Below, in pieces: positions 18,682 to 41,043 of a stretch of DNA of 64,000 nt. Source of the DNA: Candidatus Moraniibacteriota bacterium (lineage in GTDB: Bacteria; Patescibacteriota; Minisyncoccia; Moranbacterales; UBA1568); assembly GCA_017983435.1 (NCBI GenBank), contig JAGOBM010000006.1:11921-75920 (forward strand). The letters are read 5' to 3'. The translations under genes were made by a program, and so were the position numbers. How positions within the stretch are numbered: position 1 is the first letter of the stretch; every line of letters starts with the position of its first letter. The notes below the pieces were generated by a model. The model was not told the DNA's origin. It was given only the letters and a program-made list of their open reading frames with translations, and did not search any database.

Positions 18682-18711
18682 AGCATACGTCCTCCCTCCA
18701 AACGTTGTCAA
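18682..18711 (-). promoter_or_regulatory. sigma70-like promoter for pyrF (TTGACA-N18-TATGCT)
   Basis: rc of 18706-18711 is TTGACA; rc of 18682-18687 is TATGCT. Confidence 0.4.
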
Positions 18712-18715
18712 CCGT

Positions 18716-18773
18716 TCGCCAGTTTCGTCTTCGCGAAAGGACTCGCTCCTGCCCGTTCGATTCCCCTTAGGGC
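18716..18773. repeat. conserved 47-nt block (copy 1) fused to a 19-nt inverted copy of the tRNA-Glu 3' end
   Basis: 18716-18762 matches 20515-20561 with 2 mismatches. 18755-18773 is the exact reverse complement of tRNA-Glu gene positions 18829-18847. Confidence 0.8.
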
Positions 18774-18778
18774 AAACA

Positions 18779-18820
18779 AACCAAAAACCTCCCGGAAATA
18801 TATCCGGAAGGTTTTTGGTT
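18779..18820 (-). terminator. rho-independent terminator after tRNA-Glu (17-bp hairpin + U-run)
   Basis: aaccaaaaacctcccgg / ccggaaggtttttggtt, one mismatch. Confidence 0.6.
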
Positions 18821-18826
18821 AACTTG

Positions 18827-18898
18827 TAGCCCTAAGGGGAATCGAACCCCTGTTTCCTCCGTGAGAGGGAGATGTCCTAGCCGCTAGACGATAGGGCC
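18827..18898 (-). tRNA. tRNA-Glu (anticodon CTC)
   Basis: rc gives GGCCCTA-TC-GTCT...anticodon loop CTCTCAC...T-loop GGGGTTCGATTCCCC...TAGGGCT-A; aligns to bacterial tRNA-Glu. Confidence 0.8.
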
Positions 18899-19008
18899 CC
18901 TTATGAACAGCTAATAGTTGATAGCTTATAGTTTATAGCTCTTTGAGAAATTCGAATACAATCCGCGACTCTAAAAAACTAACAACTATAAGCTATCAAC
19001 TGTTCACG
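18899..19008. repeat. inter-tRNA spacer forming a large AT-rich inverted repeat (gaacag...gttgatagcttatagtt / aactataagctatcaactgttc)
   Basis: Arms ~22 nt; motif tagcttatag recurs at 13702 and 14150. Confidence 0.5.
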
Positions 19009-19601: not shown

Positions 19602-20297
19602 TCACATCGTCGACAGTGCTGATGGATTATGCAGATACAAGAACCCATCACGCCGTGTCCAGCCGATACCAGGATGACTATCCCCGTCCAATATGAGCCA
19701 CGGCCCCTCCGATTCTCTCTGGAGAGCCAGACGGCAAATACCACCGAAATCTCCTCGGACGGGAGTATGCATCACCATCAGGGTATCGATACCCATCCGG
19801 CGCAGCATATCATCCGTCAGATACTGCCGGAGGAACGGTACCAGACCGATAGGCGGCTCGACATATCCACGCTCGATAGCCATGCGTTCTATATTCTCGA
19901 GCGTCCGATCAGTGTCTGTCAGCTCACTGCCCAGCAGGATACTGCACTCATACACGAGTCCGGAGGTCATATTGTCCACCATGGGATCCCCGAGCAGATC
20001 CTCGACTCCCCGACCGAACTGGCATCCATCCTGAGCCAGATCCCGAAGAATCATTCCCATAGTCTGCGGCGACGGAGTGATCGAAAAATGCGGCGAGAGC
20101 GGATCATCATCAATAGCGGCCGCGACCACAGCCAGAGTCGGTATCACCACCACGTCAGCACGCCCCTCCATAATCTCGACCAGCTTCTCCCACAAGCCAT
20201 TTTGTTGGATATATTTGACGATTTCCACTTCGGTAGACAGGATAGTCCCATCGCGAAGATAGATCGGTGCTACCCGAGTGACGGTTGAGAACAGCAT
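19602..20297 (-). CDS. conserved-looking hypothetical protein
   Basis: AGGAGG SD 6 nt before ATG; protein-like composition, whereas the antisense ORF 19629..20288 is Arg/His/Ser-rich; no family recognised. Confidence 0.55.
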   Translation of the reverse strand: MLFSTVTRVAPIYLRDGTILSTEVEIVKYIQQNGLWEKLVEIMEGRADVVVIPTLAVVAAAIDDDPLSPHFSITPSPQTMGMILRDLAQDGCQFGRGVEDLLGDPMVDNMTSGLVYECSILLGSELTDTDRTLENIERMAIERGYVEPPIGLVPFLRQYLTDDMLRRMGIDTLMVMHTPVRGDFGGICRLALQRESEGPWLILDGDSHPGIGWTRRDGFLYLHNPSALSTM

Positions 20298-20380
20298 GAT
20301 ATCCTCCTGATTGGTATAATCTCAAAGAACGCCCGTAACTCTACCGGATTCCCACAAAAAGTAAAGTGTCACAATAAAAA

Positions 20381-20421
20381 AACAAGCCCCTGCACCTAGA
20401 AGGCGCTGAGGTTTGTTTTTG
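20381..20421 (-). terminator. rho-independent-like hairpin + U-run downstream (minus sense) of the 148-nt tRNA-like element
   Basis: aaaacaagcc...ggtttgtttt, then TTTTTTT on the minus strand. Confidence 0.4.
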
Positions 20422-20423
20422 TG

Positions 20424-20571
20424 TGGGTAGGGAGGGATTTCCGCCTCGTCGTCTGCTGACGACTTCGTTGCCCTGGGCAGCGCCAGATGCTTGCTCGCGC
20501 GCATCTGTCGACACTCGCCAGTTTCGCCTTCGCGAAAGGACTCGCTCCTGCCCGTTCGAATCCCTCCCTAC
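20424..20571 (-). other. 148-nt element bounded by perfect inverted copies of the tRNA-Tyr 3' end; minus-strand RNA would have a 13-bp acceptor-like stem ending in CCA; contains conserved 47-nt block (copy 2)
   Basis: 20424-20439 directly repeats tRNA-Tyr gene 20626-20641 (tgggtagggagggatt). 20554-20571 is its inverted copy. 20515-20561 matches the 18716-18762 block. Confidence 0.75.
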
Positions 20572-20580
20572 TTCAAAATA

Positions 20581-20619
20581 AAACTACAAAAGCACCCAGG
20601 ATGGGTGCTTTTGTAGTTT
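20581..20619 (-). terminator. rho-independent terminator after tRNA-Tyr (perfect 18-bp hairpin + U-rich tract)
   Basis: aaactacaaaagcaccca gga tgggtgcttttgtagttt. Confidence 0.65.
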
Positions 20620-20625
20620 ATACTG

Positions 20626-20709
20626 TGGGTAGGGAGGGATTCGAACCCCCGTAGCCCGTAGGGCGTCAGATTTACAGTCTGATGCATTTGACCGCTCTGC
20701 TACCTACCC
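20626..20709 (-). tRNA. tRNA-Tyr (anticodon GTA), long variable arm
   Basis: rc: GGGTAGGTAGCAGAGCGGTCAAATGCATCAGACTGTAAATCTGACGCCCTACGGGCTACGGGGGTTCGAATCCCTCCCTACCCA. Confidence 0.85.
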
Positions 20710-20791
20710 ATTTTCGTAAAATAACCAAGCACCGAAATCCAATCACCAAATAAATCTCAATTCTCAATTATTCAAAATCCAAATAGGTTTG

Positions 20792-20853
20792 TTTGGAATT
20801 TGAAATTTGGTTATTGGAATTTATTTGGAAATTGAAATTTGGTTATTGGAAAT
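20792..20853. repeat. two tandem ~30-nt AT-rich direct repeats (tttggaaWttgaaatttggttattggaaWt) between tRNA-Thr(TGT) and tRNA-Tyr
   Basis: Units at 20792-20820 and 20824-20853; only two copies, no spacer structure. Confidence 0.7.
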
Positions 20854-20861
20854 TCCACTAG

Positions 20862-31440: not shown

Positions 31441-33825
31441 ATGAGGGAACGAAAAGGAGAAAAACCAAAGGCGTTTCAGGAGTACGACCGTGTCATTACG
31501 GAGATCCAAGCGACCCGAGGACGGAATGCCGAACACTTCATAAAGATTTTCCGGCACGAAAACGATAATGTCGCTGGCGCTTCGCTCGGCGTCCTGCTTG
31601 GTGTTTTTGAGATCGATGACCAGAGCGAGGATTCCAAGTATATCGTCAATTTCCTTTTCTCCGTCGCCAAGAACGAATACTTCTGCAATCCTCGGCGCGG
31701 CGCCATGGAAAGCTTCGAAGCGGCGCTCCATAAGATCAACGTCGCCCTCGCTGAGATCGTCAAACATGGCAATATCGACTGGCTCGGCAAGTTCCACGGC
31801 ACCATAGCGATCATCGAAAAAAACTCCATCCATCTCTCCGCTACCGGCGATGGCCGCATCTATCTCTTCCGCAACGGTACGCTCTCGCATATCAGCGAAG
31901 GACTCGCTTCTCCGGATGCCGCGGAGCATCCGATCAAGACCTTCATCGAGATCTCCAGCGGTCGGCTCGCACCCGATGATCGTCTCCTCTTTTTTCTGCC
32001 TCAGGTCTTCTCGCTGCTCGATGAAGAAACCATCGAACGCCAAGCACAGCGCATGGACAAAGACCGGTTCGCTCAATTCCTCCGCACCGCCATGATCAAC
32101 GAGCTTGATCGGAGCGGCGCCATCATCGTCGATATCACCGAGCCAAGCGAGTCCGCTCGCGCCAAAGCGGAGGCCCCCGAAAGACAGCGTCCGGAAATCA
32201 AAAGCTATTTTTCCGAGGCCGCCTTCGAAGCGAAGCATCAGGAAAGCATCGCCGCGGCCCTTTCTGAGGAATCTCCGCACCATGCCTCAGGAACATCCGA
32301 ATACACCGATACGAAAACCGGCCATATCTATGTCCAGGGAGACGAGAATAGCACGCCGATAGAGACGTCCCGTTTCGCGGAGTATCTCGAGGATTTCTTC
32401 CATTCGAGCCGAGTCATCCGCGAGCAAGGCACCCGGGCCATGCGCCGGTCTTTCCGCAACTTCTCCGATCGAAGCCGCCTCTTCTGCGTCGCATCTGCGG
32501 AGCGATGCCGCCAGATCAGTGTCGGATTTTTCAAAAAACATCTCCGCTCCAGACGACCAGGAGCGACTGAATCCATCGCCACCCTCGAACCAGTCGCTGT
32601 TCTTCAAAAGCAACCGGTGCCTCAGACACCACCACATCACCCTACCGATACGCCCCGTCTACCGCTCTCATCGGCAGCGATACCAGCCACACCGGGATCA
32701 CCCCGTATCAAGGCTTCTTTTTCACAGTTTTCCCAAACATCCGGGCGTATAGCCGCCAAGACCGCTCCACTGTTCCGTAGAGCGCTCGCCTCTCTCCAGA
32801 CGGTTGCTGGTATGATTGTTTCCTGGCTTCGCACTTGGATACCCCGGCTCTCGAGCCAGATTGTCCGCTCTATACGCCCTGCTCTCTCACATATCGTCCG
32901 CCTCTTCCAAAGACTTCCGTTCAAAGCCCGCATCGGAGTACTCCTGCTCTCTACCGCGAGCATCGCGACTTTCTTCTGGATTATGGCGCGCCCCGATACC
33001 TCCGAACCGGCACCGACTTCGGAACCAGAGACAAACCTTTCCGAGGTAGAACCAACCGCATCCATCCGATCAACCGAAACACTCGCGGCCGATCTCCCAG
33101 CTCTGCGCCTTCTCTCAGAACACGCCGATACCATAGCCATCGCCTCTCTCAACGACACCCTCGTCATCGCCACCCGGACGACGATCGAAATCCCCTCACT
33201 CGCCATTTCAGCAGTACTCCCGGCCGAAAGCGGAGCGGTCCGCGCTATCGCTCCGATGCCTGACCTCCGGACATTGTTTATCCTCACCGAAAGCGGAAAA
33301 CTACTCTCCTTCACCCCTTCCAATACGACATTCACAGAAAACACCCTCCCAACCGACACTCATTCTATTCAGGCCATCGGCGCCTATCTCACCTATCTCT
33401 ACGCGCTCGATGGAAACAGCGGCCAGATCTATCGCTTCCCGCGCGCTCAGGGCGGATTCAGTGAGGGTCTCGCCTGGCTCAAACCATCGATTGCTCCAGA
33501 CAGAGAGGCGACATTTGCGGTCAACGACATGGTCTCTCTCTTTGCCCATGGTTCACTCCGCCAGTTTTCACGCGGCAAAGAAGTCCGGACTTTTGAAATG
33601 CCCAACGTACCTCTACAAACCCTGCTCTTAGCCTCCGAACCAGACAACACCCGCATCGTCGGACTCGATAATCAGAACCATCGCCTCGTCATCTGGAATA
33701 CCGAAGGTGCTATCGAACAGCAGTACTTCTCCGACCGCCTTGCTGACATCCGCAGTCTCTCGCTCCACGGACCAGTAGTCAGCCTCTCCACTGATACCGC
33801 AGTATTCGAGCTTATTCTTCCTTAG
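31441..33825 (+). CDS. 794-aa single-pass membrane protein: N-terminal degenerate PP2C/SpoIIE-like domain, low-complexity linker, C-terminal extracytoplasmic domain
   Basis: ...GKFHGTIAIIEKNSIHLSATGDGRIYLFRNG resembles PP2C motifs; TM IGVLLLSTASIATFFWIM around aa 520; bidirectional terminator after stop. Confidence 0.55.
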   Translation: MRERKGEKPKAFQEYDRVITEIQATRGRNAEHFIKIFRHENDNVAGASLGVLLGVFEIDDQSEDSKYIVNFLFSVAKNEYFCNPRRGAMESFEAALHKINVALAEIVKHGNIDWLGKFHGTIAIIEKNSIHLSATGDGRIYLFRNGTLSHISEGLASPDAAEHPIKTFIEISSGRLAPDDRLLFFLPQVFSLLDEETIERQAQRMDKDRFAQFLRTAMINELDRSGAIIVDITEPSESARAKAEAPERQRPEIKSYFSEAAFEAKHQESIAAALSEESPHHASGTSEYTDTKTGHIYVQGDENSTPIETSRFAEYLEDFFHSSRVIREQGTRAMRRSFRNFSDRSRLFCVASAERCRQISVGFFKKHLRSRRPGATESIATLEPVAVLQKQPVPQTPPHHPTDTPRLPLSSAAIPATPGSPRIKASFSQFSQTSGRIAAKTAPLFRRALASLQTVAGMIVSWLRTWIPRLSSQIVRSIRPALSHIVRLFQRLPFKARIGVLLLSTASIATFFWIMARPDTSEPAPTSEPETNLSEVEPTASIRSTETLAADLPALRLLSEHADTIAIASLNDTLVIATRTTIEIPSLAISAVLPAESGAVRAIAPMPDLRTLFILTESGKLLSFTPSNTTFTENTLPTDTHSIQAIGAYLTYLYALDGNSGQIYRFPRAQGGFSEGLAWLKPSIAPDREATFAVNDMVSLFAHGSLRQFSRGKEVRTFEMPNVPLQTLLLASEPDNTRIVGLDNQNHRLVIWNTEGAIEQQYFSDRLADIRSLSLHGPVVSLSTDTAVFELILP

Positions 33826-35143: not shown

Positions 35144-37630
35144 TCATATTTTTTCAGCCAGTTTGACCCGATCCATGATTTCACGGTTGACGATAGTCGC
35201 GTCGCGACCGAACCGCAACCGGGACAGCTCTTTCAGGGCATTGGCGATTTCCTGACTGCCCCGCGTCGGCGGATAGGTCTTCATGTTGAATGGCTTGGTC
35301 AGTTCTCCATTCATCAACAGGCGAGCGAAACAATTGTAATTATCCACGTTCATCAGGTCGTTCGGACTGAAGACCGGTGAGAACTGCTTCTCGAGAAATT
35401 CTGCATCTTCCGGACCGACTCGAAACGCCACCATCGAACCGACATTGCCGAAGACCGCCTTGGATATCTCCTCCTTGAGCTGCGCGATGAATTGGTGCGC
35501 CAAGACCAGACAGAGGCGATACTTGCGCGCTTCCGAGAGAATCTGCGCGATCGAATTCGTCGTGACATTCTGAAACTCATCCAGATAGAGATAGAAATCC
35601 TGCCGCTCATCTTCCGGAGTATCGACGCGAGACAGCGCTGCCATGAGCAACCGACCGACGATAACCATACCGAGCAACTTGGCGTTGATCTCCCCGATCT
35701 TGCCTTTGGAAAGATTGACGAGGAAAATCTTCTTTCCATCCATGATATCTCGGAAATCGAGGGCGCTCTTCTGCTGCGCGATAATCGGACGCATGATGTC
35801 GTTCGAGATGAAGGTCGTCAGCTTGGACGTGATATAGGGGACCATATTGGCCAGCGCTGCCTCGCCACCAGCCTTCTCGGCTTCCTTGAGCCAGAAATCA
35901 CGGACAATCGGATTCGTGCAGTGTTCGAGCTTGTACCGGCGAAACTCCTCATCCGCCAGCACCTTGGATATCTCCATAAGCGTCGAACCGCTTTCCGGAT
36001 GTTCCATGATCAAGAGCATCGCATTGCGCATATACTGCTCGAACATCGGCCCTCCGGTCGATTTGAGATCATACAACTGATCGAAGATACCGATCATCTC
36101 ATTGATGATGAAAGTCTTCTGCTCGGGATGCGCCGGGTCGTATTCGAGCATATTGATACCGATCGGTCGGGCGATATCTGATGGATCAAACACAATGACA
36201 TCCTCCGCCCGCTCCTTCGGAATCGCCGTCAGGATATCCTCGATCGCATCACCATGCGGATCGATAAAGCAGAAACCCTTGCCAGCTGCCGCATCTTTCT
36301 TCGCCATTTCCTGGAGAAAATTCGATTTTCCAGCCCCAGTCTGACCGATCGCATAGAGATGACGACGACGATCATTGTCCGTGATGCGTATCTCTGATTT
36401 GGCTCCACGATAGTCATTAAATCCGAGCAAGAGTCCCTCGGTCGGGATATTGATCGGAGGAGCAGCCGCACCGGATTTGAGCCATTTGATCTTCGGTGTT
36501 TCCGTCGTAGAAATCGGGAAATGGAAGATGCTTGCGATTTCCTCGATACCGAGCACACAAGCATGCTCTTCGTCGAAGGTCCGGAAGATATATTCGAAGA
36601 CCGCCCGCTTTTCTTTCACCCGGCGTAGTACTTTGAATGTATTAACATCCGGATTTTCAAATTGTCCGAACGCGTTTTCCATCTGAGAGAGTATCTCTTC
36701 GGCCCGAGCGTGATCCGCTGCTGTCGCGATCAGGCGGATATTGACCCGGAACGCTGCCTTGCCTGATTTGGCCTCGATAGCTTTTACCAGATCTTGCTCT
36801 TCCGGAGTCAGCGAGATCGGCTTTGGCTCATTCGCTTCCGGATGCGTCTGGGATGACAAGACACTCACCATCCCCTTCCCGAGCTCTTTACCGGCATCCT
36901 GCAAGAGAGACGAGTCGCTATGCGCATCCTTGAGCCGCTGCCCACCCTGCATCCTCTGGGCGATCGACTTGCCTGCGGACCGCCAATCGCTCGGAGCGCC
37001 TGAGAGCACCACCTGGATCGCCGCGCCTTCGGCTTCCGTCTTGAGCCGGGAGAGCGCGTTGGAAATCTCATTGAGCGGATCAGCACCGATCGAACGATAG
37101 GTGCGGAGCGGGAGAGCGTAGTTGTTCCGGAGACCGATCGTCGCGACCGCCGTCGCACTGTCTGGGGAAAAGACGGTGTAGTCGGATACCTTTTCGATCA
37201 CCGCGTTCGGGAAAAAACTATGTATCTGCTTCTCGATGCTTTCGCGGAAACGCTTCGGGACGGAAATATAGAAAAATATCTCCTCGCTGTTCGAGGGATT
37301 GGCGATTTCAAACACGATATTGGGCGCCGTATAGAACCACTGCCTCCAAGAACCCGTCTTCCATTTGATCGTCGCGACTGATGAGAGCAGTTGTTCCATC
37401 GCTGCCACTTCGTCCCGCCAGGCTTCGGCATCATGATTCTGTGCTTCTCCGGATGAACGGTTCGGACGGGATACTTTGACGACCTCCAGATCAGCATTCA
37501 TCGACTGGCTGACAGCGATACGAAATCGGAGCACGCTCCTGACTATAAGGAAGACACCCGAAAAAAACGCCAACAGACCAAAAACACCCAAGAGCGGTGC
37601 CAGGACTATATTCCAATCGAAACCCGACAT
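35144..37630 (-). CDS. membrane-anchored FtsK/HerA-superfamily P-loop ATPase (VirB4/VirD4/DUF87-like secretion or DNA-translocation ATPase)
   Basis: N-terminal TM (IVLAPLLGVFGLLAFFSGVF). Walker A AIGQTGAGKS around aa 440, then FIDPHGD, Walker B FYLYLDEFQNV, and ARKYRLCLVLAHQF (HerA/VirB4-type C-terminal motif). Confidence 0.65.
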   Translation of the reverse strand: MSGFDWNIVLAPLLGVFGLLAFFSGVFLIVRSVLRFRIAVSQSMNADLEVVKVSRPNRSSGEAQNHDAEAWRDEVAAMEQLLSSVATIKWKTGSWRQWFYTAPNIVFEIANPSNSEEIFFYISVPKRFRESIEKQIHSFFPNAVIEKVSDYTVFSPDSATAVATIGLRNNYALPLRTYRSIGADPLNEISNALSRLKTEAEGAAIQVVLSGAPSDWRSAGKSIAQRMQGGQRLKDAHSDSSLLQDAGKELGKGMVSVLSSQTHPEANEPKPISLTPEEQDLVKAIEAKSGKAAFRVNIRLIATAADHARAEEILSQMENAFGQFENPDVNTFKVLRRVKEKRAVFEYIFRTFDEEHACVLGIEEIASIFHFPISTTETPKIKWLKSGAAAPPINIPTEGLLLGFNDYRGAKSEIRITDNDRRRHLYAIGQTGAGKSNFLQEMAKKDAAAGKGFCFIDPHGDAIEDILTAIPKERAEDVIVFDPSDIARPIGINMLEYDPAHPEQKTFIINEMIGIFDQLYDLKSTGGPMFEQYMRNAMLLIMEHPESGSTLMEISKVLADEEFRRYKLEHCTNPIVRDFWLKEAEKAGGEAALANMVPYITSKLTTFISNDIMRPIIAQQKSALDFRDIMDGKKIFLVNLSKGKIGEINAKLLGMVIVGRLLMAALSRVDTPEDERQDFYLYLDEFQNVTTNSIAQILSEARKYRLCLVLAHQFIAQLKEEISKAVFGNVGSMVAFRVGPEDAEFLEKQFSPVFSPNDLMNVDNYNCFARLLMNGELTKPFNMKTYPPTRGSQEIANALKELSRLRFGRDATIVNREIMDRVKLAEKI

Positions 37631-38451: not shown

Positions 38452-41043
38452 TTATCGACTGGTCGAAAAAATCCCATATATTGTCCCTTGAGTCGCTCTC
38501 GGGGCTGCCTGCTTCAGGTACTCCTCTACCGTGCCATTGACATTGCCTCGGAAGAATTCCGTCATCGAGACGACACCGGCCTTCTGTAGGCTCGCAGCGA
38601 ATTCATAAAAATTGCGATACTGCTCCGGAGCAAGGCTACTACGATACCCCATCACCTTTCCGGCAGCGAAAGCCTGCGTGTCCCGGATGACATCCGCGAC
38701 CTTCACCCGCATGATTTCGGACCGATTCAGCACCCAATCCTGACCAGGAGTCGGACTCTCAACCCGGAAAATCTGCGCATACCAATCATCCACACGAGGA
38801 GCATGTTCTGAAACCGCGACTTCCTCCGCTAGAGGAGTCACCTCTGGCCTGGTTTCGGCAATCACCGACTCCACTGCCGGCGTATCGATCGAGATCGGTG
38901 ATGTTGCCAATGTTGCATCCATCTTGGCCAGAGCCGCCTCTCGTACCGCATCGACATTCGATACCGGCGCGTGAGGTGCGACGGTCTCCACGAAGCGCCG
39001 CGCATCGGCCAGGTATCGATCCAGATCCTGTGTCCCGAAGAGACGGGTGAAGTCAATACGATCACCCGGACGCAACTGCGCGATATCACCACTCGAAATA
39101 CCGAGCGCCCGGACCTCAGCCGGAGACAATGAAGCTGCTTTGTCCTTGATCGCATCTATCAGGGCATGCGACTGTCCGACATTCAATCCTAGTCCGCCGG
39201 TCCGCTCCTGCACGAGATTCCAGAAGTTATCACCCGCCTTCACATTGGCAGTCTTGAGAAAATTCGAATATTCGGATGAGAAGCCTTCTATGGACGCATG
39301 CGGCACTTCCGTTATCCGCTCAGGAACTGCAGATACCGCTGGCTGTGTTTCTACTGGTGTTGCCACCGGATCGGCCACACTGGCTTCTGGCAAGAGCGTC
39401 TCATCAGTCGCATCAGGGAGAGCGGCCAGACCGAATGATCGATCAAGCCATCCGATACCGGTCCCATGATCCATCACGTGTTGCACACCCTCACCGATCC
39501 AGCCCTTCCCGACGACGAGGCCAAGCGCGGCGCCCGACGCACCGATCAGGAGTTTCCGACGCTTCATCGCATCCACTCGTTCACGGAAAAGTCCGGAAGC
39601 TTCTTTGCCTGTTTGGAGATGCTGTTCGACAAACAGTTTCACTGATGCTTCAAAATCCCGCGCTTTCTCAGCCCGAGTCTCATCATCCATATCCATCATC
39701 AGGTCGGCATTACCTGTCTGCGCTTCTATCTCCGCAATCTTATCAAAAATTTTCTGTCCCGCCTCCTCAGCCTGCGCTCGGGCCCGCGCATCAGCCCGTC
39801 CTTCGAGCGCCGTATCGAGCGTCACCGAAAGTGAGCCTCCTGCCAAGACCGCCCGAGCAAAAGCCGCCCCGAAAGCCGCCGCGCCTCCAGCCGCCGTCAC
39901 TCCCACGAGAGCGCCACCGATCGTCAATTTCTCATACCATTTGAGCCCATTATACGCATGCATCCACTGAGAAAGCTTCTCTCCGATACGCCCATGAAGC
40001 GAGCTCGATTTTCGTTTTATTTCTGCCTGCTTGCGTGCCTCGTATAATTGCACACGGCCTTCGAATTCACCGAAGTTCAGCACCTCCGCCATTTCCCGCT
40101 TGTATGCATCACTTCGATCACCGGCATATTTCCGTTCGATACGTGCTAGACGCTCCTGAGTGAATCGGAGACGAGCCTCCTCATAGCGCGTGCGGGCATC
40201 ATCCACGTCTTCCAGAGGCACTTCCTGCTTGAGTCCGAACAGATTCCGCAGACGCAGCAGTGTGCTTGATTTTTCAAGGTCAACCGAGACGTAGCGCTCT
40301 CGAGCGATAGCCAGATCATTCTTCAGTGTTTCCAGCAAAGCATCCGCCTGGACCGTCTCTTCCGGAATCACAGCGGCTTCTTTCGGTAGACGGCCGTATT
40401 TGCGCAACACTTCCGCTTCCGCGGCTGATCCCGGCGCTGCGAATGCAGCCTCTTGCTGTTGTTTCAAATCTGCATCCTCAGCATCCAGCTCGGCAGGCTC
40501 CGCCATACTCGCCTTGATAAGTTCCGAAGCCCGGGCCTCTTCCTCCGGAGAGAGCGGCGTCGGCAACGGCTGGATCGGCAAAGTCGGATCGATTTCCACC
40601 CCCGCGCCATCTGTGCGCTCTCGTACGCCGAATCCCTTCAGGACTTCCTTCGGAAATTCTCCAGCTATCTCTTGAGCTGAATACTCTTCGGCGGGTGCGG
40701 AAGGCAGAGGAGGATGTGTCGTATCTTCCTTGATCAGATGCTGCACGGTCTCCATATCAGGATTCGTCAACGCACGACCATCCGGCGTCACGATAAAATC
40801 CTCAACCCCATCCAGAACAGGGTCCAGCGGCTCTACTACCGGCTGTTCGGCACGTTTCGTATTGGTTCGCCGGCGTCGGCGCAAGACCTGAGGAGCCGGC
40901 TCAGTCATAGGCTCTGCTGCCAAAGACAAAGTCGGTTCGATCTTCTCAGTCGACTTATCTGGCAACTGCGACAAATCCTCAGCCAGCTTATCGCCCATGC
41001 TGCGGATCCGTGCCAATACTGCCTCCATCTTCTTGTCCTCCAT
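38452..41043 (-). CDS. 863-aa membrane protein: acidic/coiled-coil N-terminus, two glycine-zipper TM segments, C-terminal LysM-like motif (tentative)
   Basis: GGALVGVTAAGGAAAFGAAFARAVLAGG and LLIGASGAALGLVVG hydrophobic Gly-zippers; VKAGDNFWNLVQE...GDIAQLRPGDRIDF LysM-like. Confidence 0.55.
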   Translation of the reverse strand: MEDKKMEAVLARIRSMGDKLAEDLSQLPDKSTEKIEPTLSLAAEPMTEPAPQVLRRRRRTNTKRAEQPVVEPLDPVLDGVEDFIVTPDGRALTNPDMETVQHLIKEDTTHPPLPSAPAEEYSAQEIAGEFPKEVLKGFGVRERTDGAGVEIDPTLPIQPLPTPLSPEEEARASELIKASMAEPAELDAEDADLKQQQEAAFAAPGSAAEAEVLRKYGRLPKEAAVIPEETVQADALLETLKNDLAIARERYVSVDLEKSSTLLRLRNLFGLKQEVPLEDVDDARTRYEEARLRFTQERLARIERKYAGDRSDAYKREMAEVLNFGEFEGRVQLYEARKQAEIKRKSSSLHGRIGEKLSQWMHAYNGLKWYEKLTIGGALVGVTAAGGAAAFGAAFARAVLAGGSLSVTLDTALEGRADARARAQAEEAGQKIFDKIAEIEAQTGNADLMMDMDDETRAEKARDFEASVKLFVEQHLQTGKEASGLFRERVDAMKRRKLLIGASGAALGLVVGKGWIGEGVQHVMDHGTGIGWLDRSFGLAALPDATDETLLPEASVADPVATPVETQPAVSAVPERITEVPHASIEGFSSEYSNFLKTANVKAGDNFWNLVQERTGGLGLNVGQSHALIDAIKDKAASLSPAEVRALGISSGDIAQLRPGDRIDFTRLFGTQDLDRYLADARRFVETVAPHAPVSNVDAVREAALAKMDATLATSPISIDTPAVESVIAETRPEVTPLAEEVAVSEHAPRVDDWYAQIFRVESPTPGQDWVLNRSEIMRVKVADVIRDTQAFAAGKVMGYRSSLAPEQYRNFYEFAASLQKAGVVSMTEFFRGNVNGTVEEYLKQAAPRATQGTIYGIFSTSR

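Follow-up and report, generated by a model that had tools for sequence, protein, structure and literature searches.

A 64,000-nt stretch of a Candidatus Moraniibacteriota genome (contig JAGOBM010000006.1, positions 11,921 to 75,920 of the forward strand; hereafter the window) contains a 47-nt block that occurs twice, beside tRNA-Glu and beside tRNA-Tyr. We found that this 47-mer marks the start of a cassette of ~200 bp that has no genes, forms hairpins and is inserted exactly at the 3' ends of some tRNA genes. The tRNA-Tyr locus of the window holds a complete cassette. Judged from sequence comparison, the segment at 18716-18826 next to tRNA-Glu is a truncated cassette remnant. The insertion is bounded by direct repeats of its target, and in relatives the same sites are found with it or without it. 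It also stacks, is eroded by deletions, trades sequence between loci and retains its fold on the tRNA-sense strand. Our reading, to which we give an even chance, is that of a non-coding, non-autonomous insertion cassette of ~200 bp that is specific for tRNA 3' ends, belongs to a narrow Candidatus Moranbacteria clade and is moved by site-specific recombination.

The analysis covered ~100 kb of the source genome and a few kb from each of ~10 relatives. Contigs of the relatives (L-numbers) were fetched through homologues of PyrF and of a 231-aa protein encoded near tRNA-Tyr. ARAGORN was used for tRNA calls, Rfam 15 for RNA family calls and Pfam for a domain scan of 46 open reading frames (ORFs) in the window. 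The evidence for the cassette family spans two tRNAs, Glu and Tyr, within one narrow clade.

Architecture of the cassette

At both window loci the tRNA-sense strand is the minus strand, on which all features of this section lie. Read along it, the unit consists of the tRNA ending in a segment X, a terminator, an inverted copy X', a scaffold S, a second X and the tRNA's former terminator. The second X is a direct copy that extends from T-loop A58 to 2-5 nt past the tRNA end. X' stops 1-2 nt short of the acceptor end and is without the complement of the discriminator and CCA. Together, X' and the second X form a 12-14-bp stem that closes S. The scaffold exists in two types, A and B. The 47-mer is composed of the start of S and the T-loop part of X', and its tRNA-independent portion measures 39 nt.

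The complete cassette, of type A, follows tRNA-Tyr(GUA) (20625..20709; ARAGORN, Rfam 64.6 bits). The left direct repeat X(Tyr), AATCCCTCCCTACCCACA, is located at 20624..20641 and reaches from T-loop A58 to 2 nt beyond the discriminator. Terminator 1 (20581..20619), found by the inverted-repeat and terminator scans, is a perfect 18-bp palindrome with a U-run and travels with the cassette. X'(Tyr) occupies 20554..20571 and is the inverted copy of tRNA-Tyr positions 53-70. The scaffold (20440..20553) is 114 nt long with 65.5% GC; folds and a consensus structure place in it a helix P2 (GGGCAGG/CCTGCCC) and the hairpins H1, H2 and H3. The right direct repeat X(Tyr) (20422..20439), a displaced or duplicated tRNA 3' end, is identical to the left one at 18/18 positions. 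It pairs with X' in helix P1 and closes a stem-loop of ~150 nt. Terminator 2 (20376..20420), seen as a hairpin in the fold, is the older tRNA-Tyr terminator and now stands downstream of the cassette, before the promoter region of the 231-aa gene. Lineage-specific terminators are found at the equivalent position in L006 and L017.

The second copy is hosted by tRNA-Glu(CUC) (18826..18898; ARAGORN, Rfam tRNA 60.1 bits), in which the last 19 nt of the paired region, 18829-18847, constitute X. A terminator hairpin with 21-nt arms (18779..18820; inverted repeat) lies between the tRNA and X' and is part of the left portion of the cassette. X'(Glu) (18755..18773), the inverted copy of tRNA-Glu positions 53-71, contains the T-loop, the T-stem 3' strand and the acceptor 3' strand minus its last nucleotide. 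It is followed by the first 39 nt of S (18716..18754), GGGCAGGAGCGA with the window-type hairpin H1, which match 20515-20553. Here the cassette is cut and fused to the pyrF promoter. The deletion junction is at ~18712-18715, beside the pyrF -35. A promoter scan identified the promoter-like site, TTGACA and TATGCT separated by 18 nt (18682..18711), which is outside the cassette and forms the right edge of the truncation. This promoter region is conserved in L006, L049 and L051.

Much of this layout had been noticed in an initial annotation made from the letters of the window. It described the 47-mer as recurring with two mismatches, and we found 18716-18765 and 20515-20564 to be identical at 48/50 positions; a 45-nt pattern (Y at position 13) has two exact matches in the window and none in any of 100 shuffles. 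The inverted copy at tRNA-Glu was correctly described (19 nt, 100% complementary to 18829-18847, 55 nt apart). The one at tRNA-Tyr is also real, with 18 nt at 100% complementarity and a distance of 57 nt, but its tRNA arm had been placed 3 nt off at 20626-20643 and is located at 20629-20646. Terminator-like hairpins do stand between each tRNA and its inverted copy, and the block does adjoin the pyrF -35, where the promoter-like site begins at 18711, 4 nt from the block. The annotation did not mention that the tRNA-Tyr 3' end occurs a third time, as a direct copy at 20422-20439, or that the copy at 18716 is what truncation has left of a larger unit. For comparison, best inverted matches within 400 nt downstream reach only 10-12/20 at the other four tRNAs of the window and at the tRNAs of the relatives.

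Empty, occupied and decayed sites in relatives

Comparison of relatives revealed both empty and occupied tRNA-Glu sites. In L049 the site is clean and consists of the tRNA, a terminator and the pyrF promoter. In L006 this terminator and promoter are also present, but a complete unit of terminator, X', S and direct copy separates them from the tRNA. The terminator directly after tRNA-Glu in L049 is the one to the right of the second X in L006, which indicates that L006 carries the insertion. It is also different from the cassette's own terminator (18779-18820). The L006 insertion measures ~196 bp and is bounded by a 20-bp direct repeat, ATTCCCCTTAGGGCTACAAG. Since L006 has the same start as the window, continuing into a full S and a direct tRNA-Glu end, the tRNA-Glu copy of the window is a truncated cassette. 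A single local inversion, an origin of the inverted copies that would have told against the initial annotation, does not explain this pattern.

At tRNA-Tyr, L017 contains type B alone, while the window, L024 and L025 contain type A only. L006 has a tandem arrangement, in which the tRNA ending in X is followed by a terminator, B, X, terminator 1, A and X. L017 and L006 are thus an empty and occupied pair for type A. Terminator 1 precedes X' in the window, L024, L025 and L006, and in L006 it comes after cassette B. An extra copy of X and terminator 1 is found after A in L025. The host tRNAs are intact after insertion, with Rfam scores of 60-65 bits.

Many copies have been shortened. The tRNA-Glu copy of L051 ends after 12 nt of S, and only short degenerate stumps are left in L047 and L012. 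Type B is cut short at tRNA-Tyr in L012, L019 and L023. The truncations have different junctions and are independent, at tRNA-Glu in the window, L051, L047 and L012 as well as at tRNA-Tyr in L012, L019 and L023. In the older remnants X' has decayed as well, to 14/20 in L012 and to ~10 contiguous nt in L047.

Direct repeats of a tRNA 3' end, tandem repeats and truncations are classical footprints of tRNA integrases, and a plain partial tRNA duplicate (position 26 to +11) is located at tRNA-His just outside the window. The copies could be inert footprints, fused attL and attR arms left after integrase-carrying elements once in tRNA-Glu and tRNA-Tyr were deleted. We consider this quite unlikely. 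A scaffold of ~115 nt is kept at two tRNAs in several lineages with 96-100% identity, compared to 40-90% in the flanks, and its hairpins are maintained by compensatory changes. An exact inverted copy of the core is not an ordinary feature of attP arms, and no gene remnants are found between the repeats. The attachment-site scar was nevertheless the closest of the three ideas put forward in the initial annotation: direct repeats of the tRNA 3' end do bound the unit, presence and absence alternate at identical sites, and units are stacked in tandem. What does not hold is the inert scar of a large element; the unit is a defined, gene-less cassette of ~200 bp, conserved above the surrounding genes, with a fold held by compensatory changes and no integrase nearby in the 64-kb window.

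In several independent short-read assemblies of this strain, contigs end inside the cassette, at 20418 (L005), 20444 (L002) and 20557 (L004). The threefold tRNA end is evidently what breaks up the assemblies. Two apparent differences were dropped as artifacts: the divergence of L005 at tRNA-Thr, L005 being a chimeric contig, and a 100-nt gap in L055, which is a scaffold N-run.

Conservation and exchange between loci

The cassette is better conserved than its surroundings. Between the window and L006, the left block at tRNA-Glu is 100% identical over 83 nt, and the tRNA-Tyr cassette is 88.8% identical as a whole and 96-97% outside hairpin H1. Flanking genes are 77-86% identical, and other tRNA spacers 40-60%. 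The tRNA-Glu terminator hairpin of the window is identical to that of L006 and has one mismatch to that of L051, although the PyrF proteins are only 76-78% identical. L051 is a mosaic, with a window-like left block (one mismatch) joined to an L012-like right flank and a pyrF 76% identical to that of the window.

Hairpin H1 differs between genomes in a concerted manner. One variant is common to both copies of the window, and another is common to both copies of L006. In addition, X' at tRNA-Tyr of L006 is chimeric and contains the Glu-type AATCGAAC. The sharing of H1 within genomes and the chimeric X' indicate that the two loci, which are 1.8 kb apart, exchange sequence. By sequence, such exchange, and not a recent hop, may explain the common 47-mer. 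The tRNA-specific ends change together, while the scaffold is common to the Glu and Tyr copies. These features agree with another idea of the initial annotation, a recombination module that copies tRNA ends, in so far as tRNA-specific ends change together on a common scaffold and the copies exchange sequence.

The loop of terminator 1 is flipped (ATCC or GGAT) between the window (20581-20619) and L024 (256-300), and also between the two copies in L025, in cassettes that are otherwise near-identical. Read from sequence, such inversion is the flip-flop to be expected when a perfect palindrome extrudes or undergoes template switching. It shows hairpin-mediated switching at this site and speaks for a reading in which no mobile element exists. 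The terminator palindromes would have grown outwards by intrastrand template switching, the tRNA 3' end being copied across the hairpin to yield X', and the common 47-mer would be the product of gene conversion between loci 1.8 kb apart. Gene conversion between Glu and Tyr is indeed evident, and the type B palindrome is continuous from the acceptor strand through the terminator into X'. This scheme gives no source for S, and it accounts neither for the second X nor for the clean empty site in L049 nor for the tandem B and A units with their X repeats. It also gives no reason for X' ending at tRNA position 53 in both loci, and we regard it as very unlikely.

Conservation of the fold

The five type A copies share a consensus fold composed of P1 (X'/X), P2 and the hairpins H1-H3. 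Pairing in P1 is kept between the Glu and Tyr copies, with eight pairs changed on both sides. In the stems of S, all three single substitutions (3/3) yield G.U pairs on the tRNA-sense strand and A.C mismatches on the other strand. Comparison of type B in L006 and L017 revealed four double compensatory and four G.U-type changes with no broken pairs, a test of limited power as the fold was predicted from the same two sequences. S differs from the neighboring spacers in composition, with 65.5% GC compared to 27-43%. The strand-specific, wobble-compatible substitutions are the only indirect hint that recombination might proceed from a single-stranded substrate.

The same observations could indicate a product made of RNA. 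X'-S-X may be a small structured RNA gene, whose ends mimic the acceptor/T-arm minihelix of the neighboring tRNA. Read-through of the terminator would produce this RNA, and the enzymes of tRNA maturation (RNase P, 3' trimming, possibly CCA addition) would process it. Function would reside in S, the cassette-like behavior being secondary. This is the strongest rival to a mobile cassette, since the compensatory changes imply continuing selection; we think it possible but improbable. The high GC content of S, its conservation above the flanking genes, the strand-specific and G.U-compatible substitutions and the double compensatory changes in A and B all fit an RNA. So does the terminator after each unit, and in type B a hairpin separates the acceptor-like half of the closing stem from the T-stem-like half at exactly the point where a real tRNA has its body. 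However, the promoter scan found no sigma-70-type site upstream of the unit, and a strong terminator (18-bp stem and U-run) directly precedes X'. Rfam gave no family match for A or B even at E<=10, only chance-level microRNA-type matches over the hairpins. By itself, S has a fold only modestly better than that of shuffles (z = -1.7). Lineages have exchanged hairpin H1 as a whole, and in many of them only truncated 5' stumps are left. The direct repeats include non-tRNA trailer nucleotides and bound the insertion, which indicates a DNA-level event and counts against an RNA gene.

X' could also act on the tRNA itself. On read-through, it would pair as a cis-antisense regulator with the 3' half of the nascent tRNA and mark the transcript for RNase III or block folding of the tRNA, and the downstream X would serve as an anti-antisense. 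The initial annotation had raised pairing of this kind, and it is possible on paper: the predicted read-through transcript forms a hairpin of 19 + 4 + 17 bp that includes the tRNA 3' half, and X' is kept in truncated copies. But X' has a dedicated partner in the downstream direct copy, and the unit is preceded by the strong terminator and no detected promoter. X' has decayed in the older remnants (L012 and L047), some relatives have no full cassette and nothing in its place, and there is no apparent benefit in destroying read-through tRNA. A regulatory role of X' is highly improbable.

Searches for a recombinase and for further copies

No ORF is present in the cassette. The 46 ORFs scanned with Pfam, which cover most of the window, encode housekeeping proteins and a secretion-type cluster. 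Integrase genes, which the initial annotation had suggested looking for near such sites in other strains, are not found among them. Given that the cassette has no ORF and that no recombinase domain occurs in these 46 ORFs, it could only be a non-autonomous member of the tRNA-targeting integrative elements.

Further copies were sought in several collections. The 47-mer itself occurs only at its two sites in the sequence reached, an outcome which the initial annotation would have counted against its proposal; the scaffold family is found at tRNA-Glu and tRNA-Tyr of several genomes. Exact-pattern scans for parts of the 47-mer had no matches in genome contigs or in metagenome contigs, with a pattern that included the window-specific hairpin. 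The type A core had no matches in viral contigs and matched one JGI metagenome contig, which is a relative (L025). The type B core had no matches in viral contigs. An 18-nt pattern across the X'-S junction had 21 viral matches, all at one unrelated prophage gene junction, and was dismissed as chance. BLASTN in distant mode of B and A against phages and plasmids gave no match. A protein-guided search of GTDB species genomes with the 231-aa neighbor found no relative of this protein, which indicates that the clade is absent from that collection. No further cassette copies were found in the ~100 kb of the source genome or in the collections searched.

Several candidate identities were tried and rejected. 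ARAGORN recognized only six tRNAs in the window, neither the cassette nor a tmRNA among them, and the likeness of GGATTCGAAC to a tmRNA 5' region comes only from a near-palindromic T-loop; a tmRNA or permuted tmRNA was dropped on these grounds. A minihelix derived by deletion of a tRNA body is inconsistent with X' containing the reverse complement of the T-loop (AATCGAA for Glu) and not the T-loop. A coding peptide is inconsistent with ORFs that run across the two copies in different frames. A retroelement primer-binding site, 18 nt complementary to a tRNA 3' end including CCA, would require the CCA complement, which is missing. For guide RNAs (the homing CRISPR RNA of type V-K CRISPR-associated transposons, the omega RNA of TnpB or IscB, the bridge RNA of IS110), there is no effector gene in the window and no Rfam match. 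A casposon or other terminal-inverted-repeat transposon was excluded as the unit ends, X'/X aside, are not mutual inverted repeats.

A number of observations weigh against a mobile cassette. Among the 46 ORFs no integrase, resolvase, transposase or reverse transcriptase domain was found, and no larger autonomous relative carrying S was found in the viral, phage, plasmid, metagenome and genome collections. The family is low-copy and is seen at two tRNAs only. The Glu and Tyr copies have S in common but not the terminator or the ends, so a simple hop of one unit from tRNA to tRNA did not take place, and gene conversion between two old copies explains the common 47-mer at least as well. The compensatory evolution in orthologous B copies suggests continuing selection for the fold, which fits an RNA used by the host as well as it fits a mobile element. 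Finally, the X'/X stems are perfect and do not have the mismatched center of CTXphi attP(+) or integron core motifs.

Neighboring repeats and genes

Other repeats are found beside tRNA genes of the same organism. Just beyond the left end of the window (L055, 11830-11955), a partial direct duplicate of tRNA-His comes after the gene; it covers position 26 to +11 and includes an exact repeat of 29 nt. In the duplicate, a 16-nt palindrome, TCCGCCAGCTGGCGGA, takes the position of the anticodon loop, and a 26-nt hairpin replaces part of the T-loop. The same TCCGCCAGCTGGCGGA is hairpin H1 of the type A cassette in L006 and L024. The spacer between tRNA-Trp and tRNA-Glu (18899-19007) is a 109-nt, AT-rich, near-perfect hairpin with 32-nt arms. 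It is 99% identical in L051; L006, L012 and L049 have spacers of 81, 19 and 11 nt, respectively. This is a second, unrelated palindromic insertion of variable length in the tRNA cluster. The spacer between tRNA-Thr(UGU) and tRNA-Tyr (20710-20860) has 27% GC and contains a tandem pair of 32-nt units (20788-20851) together with inverted repeats that are long but imperfect; its length is 151 nt in the window and 87 nt in L006, with 40% identity.

The 231-aa protein (19602-20297, minus strand) has no Pfam domain and is conserved, with 64-89% identity, in this narrow clade only. Its gene is always located between tRNA-Tyr and tRNA-Thr(GGU), and is deleted in the metagenome contig L025. Farther away, 35144-37630 on the minus strand encodes an 828-aa protein with TrwB/TraG-type coupling-protein domains. 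It is surrounded by large ORFs without a family match (38452-41043 and 31441-33825), and the region may be a secretion or DNA-transfer cluster.

Relation to known systems

The cassette resembles tRNA-targeting integrative elements, which comprise tyrosine-integrase islands, prophages and their att-flanked non-autonomous derivatives, in several respects. It is inserted at a tRNA 3' end, and the tRNA is restored by sequence borne on the element. The direct repeat of 18-20 bp (29 bp at tRNA-His) runs from the T-loop to a few nucleotides past the gene. Tandem accretion and empty and occupied alleles are also observed. Unlike those elements, the cassette measures only ~200 bp, contains no genes and has no integrase within 64 kb. 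It carries an exact inverted copy of the attachment core and a conserved folded scaffold, and one scaffold is combined with two different tRNA-specific core pairs.

The attP of CTXphi consists of two inverted dif-like sites folded in single-stranded DNA, and the phage integrates as single-stranded DNA (PMC4246890). Like CTXphi attP(+) and integron attC, the cassette has inverted target-like cores, here ~100 nt apart, that can form a stem mimicking the duplex. It is likewise a gene-poor unit found in tandem arrays, its recombinase presumably encoded elsewhere, and its fold is conserved above its sequence in a strand-specific manner. However, its target is a tRNA 3' end and not dif or attI. It has no XerC/D or R''/R' (RYYYAAC/GTTRRRY) motifs, unpaired center or extrahelical bases. 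The outer ends of the cassette stems are GTAGGG.../...CCCTAC and GCCCTA.../...TAGGGC; a GTT core is absent from the outer boundary. There is also no known single-stranded replicon.

Small palindromic repeats are another point of comparison. Miniature inverted-repeat transposable elements (MITEs), REP/BIME, ERIC and RPE repeats and the GC-rich hairpin clusters of organelles are short, non-coding, hairpin-forming and intergenic, often beside terminators, as is the cassette. Hairpin modules seem to be shuffled, as with the 16-nt palindrome shared by type A of L006 and L024 and the tRNA-His pseudo-copy. Unlike MITE- and REP-like repeats, the cassette has terminal inverted repeats that vary and equal the local tRNA end, a duplication of 18-29 bp compared to 2-10 bp, and a very low copy number strictly linked to tRNAs.

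Likeness to tRNA-like RNAs (the tmRNA domain, viral structures, minihelices) is limited to the closing stem. It is identical to the acceptor 3' and T-stem 3' strand, is perfectly paired and has, with 12-14 bp, the length of the tRNA top half. The cassette is without T-loop, D-arm and anticodon arm, and ARAGORN and Rfam are blind to it; its 5' strand is not that of the tRNA itself but a true reverse complement, T-loop included. With the guide RNAs of mobile systems it has only the layout in common, a constant scaffold joined to an 18-19-nt target-matching segment. In the papers searched on tRNA-linked miniature or hairpin elements, we found no description of this architecture.

Proposed mechanism and implications

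For the cassette to be mobile, site-specific recombination would take place inside the 18-20-bp X core, with a recombinase presumably supplied in trans. Such movement would resemble that of cis-mobilizable elements, integron cassettes and Xer-exploiting elements. The cassette would bring its own terminator, which would keep the tRNA functional. In single-stranded form, the X'/X stem would rebuild the duplex attachment core, as in CTXphi attP(+) and integron attC, and by this analogy it may be a folded attachment site. Templated correction across the palindrome X-terminator-X' would keep X' matched to the local tRNA.

A bolder proposal, which we hold to be unlikely, is that of a new non-coding mobile element with its own target address, the internal 18-19-nt complement. 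In the X'/X stem of single-stranded DNA (or RNA), a recombinase of the host or of a helper would be offered a duplex copy of the tRNA 3' end. The neighboring tRNA would serve as the template from which the address is renewed across the terminator palindrome, and one scaffold could in this way be directed to different tRNAs.

For practical purposes, partial tRNA repeats and GC-rich hairpins downstream of tRNA genes in these genomes flag structured insertions that break short-read assemblies. If X'-S-X is instead an RNA, it would represent an undescribed family clamped by tRNA ends. If the cassette moves, it would be a minimal site-specific element of ~200 bp, with no genes and its own terminator, and would show how little sequence suffices to occupy a classical tRNA site without harming the tRNA. 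That both arms change along with the target also suggests a templated switch of target specificity. The folded-hairpin attachment principle, so far a matter of CTXphi and integrons, would then apply to tRNA targets as well and reach the mobile elements of the Patescibacteria (Candidate Phyla Radiation, CPR), of which little is known.

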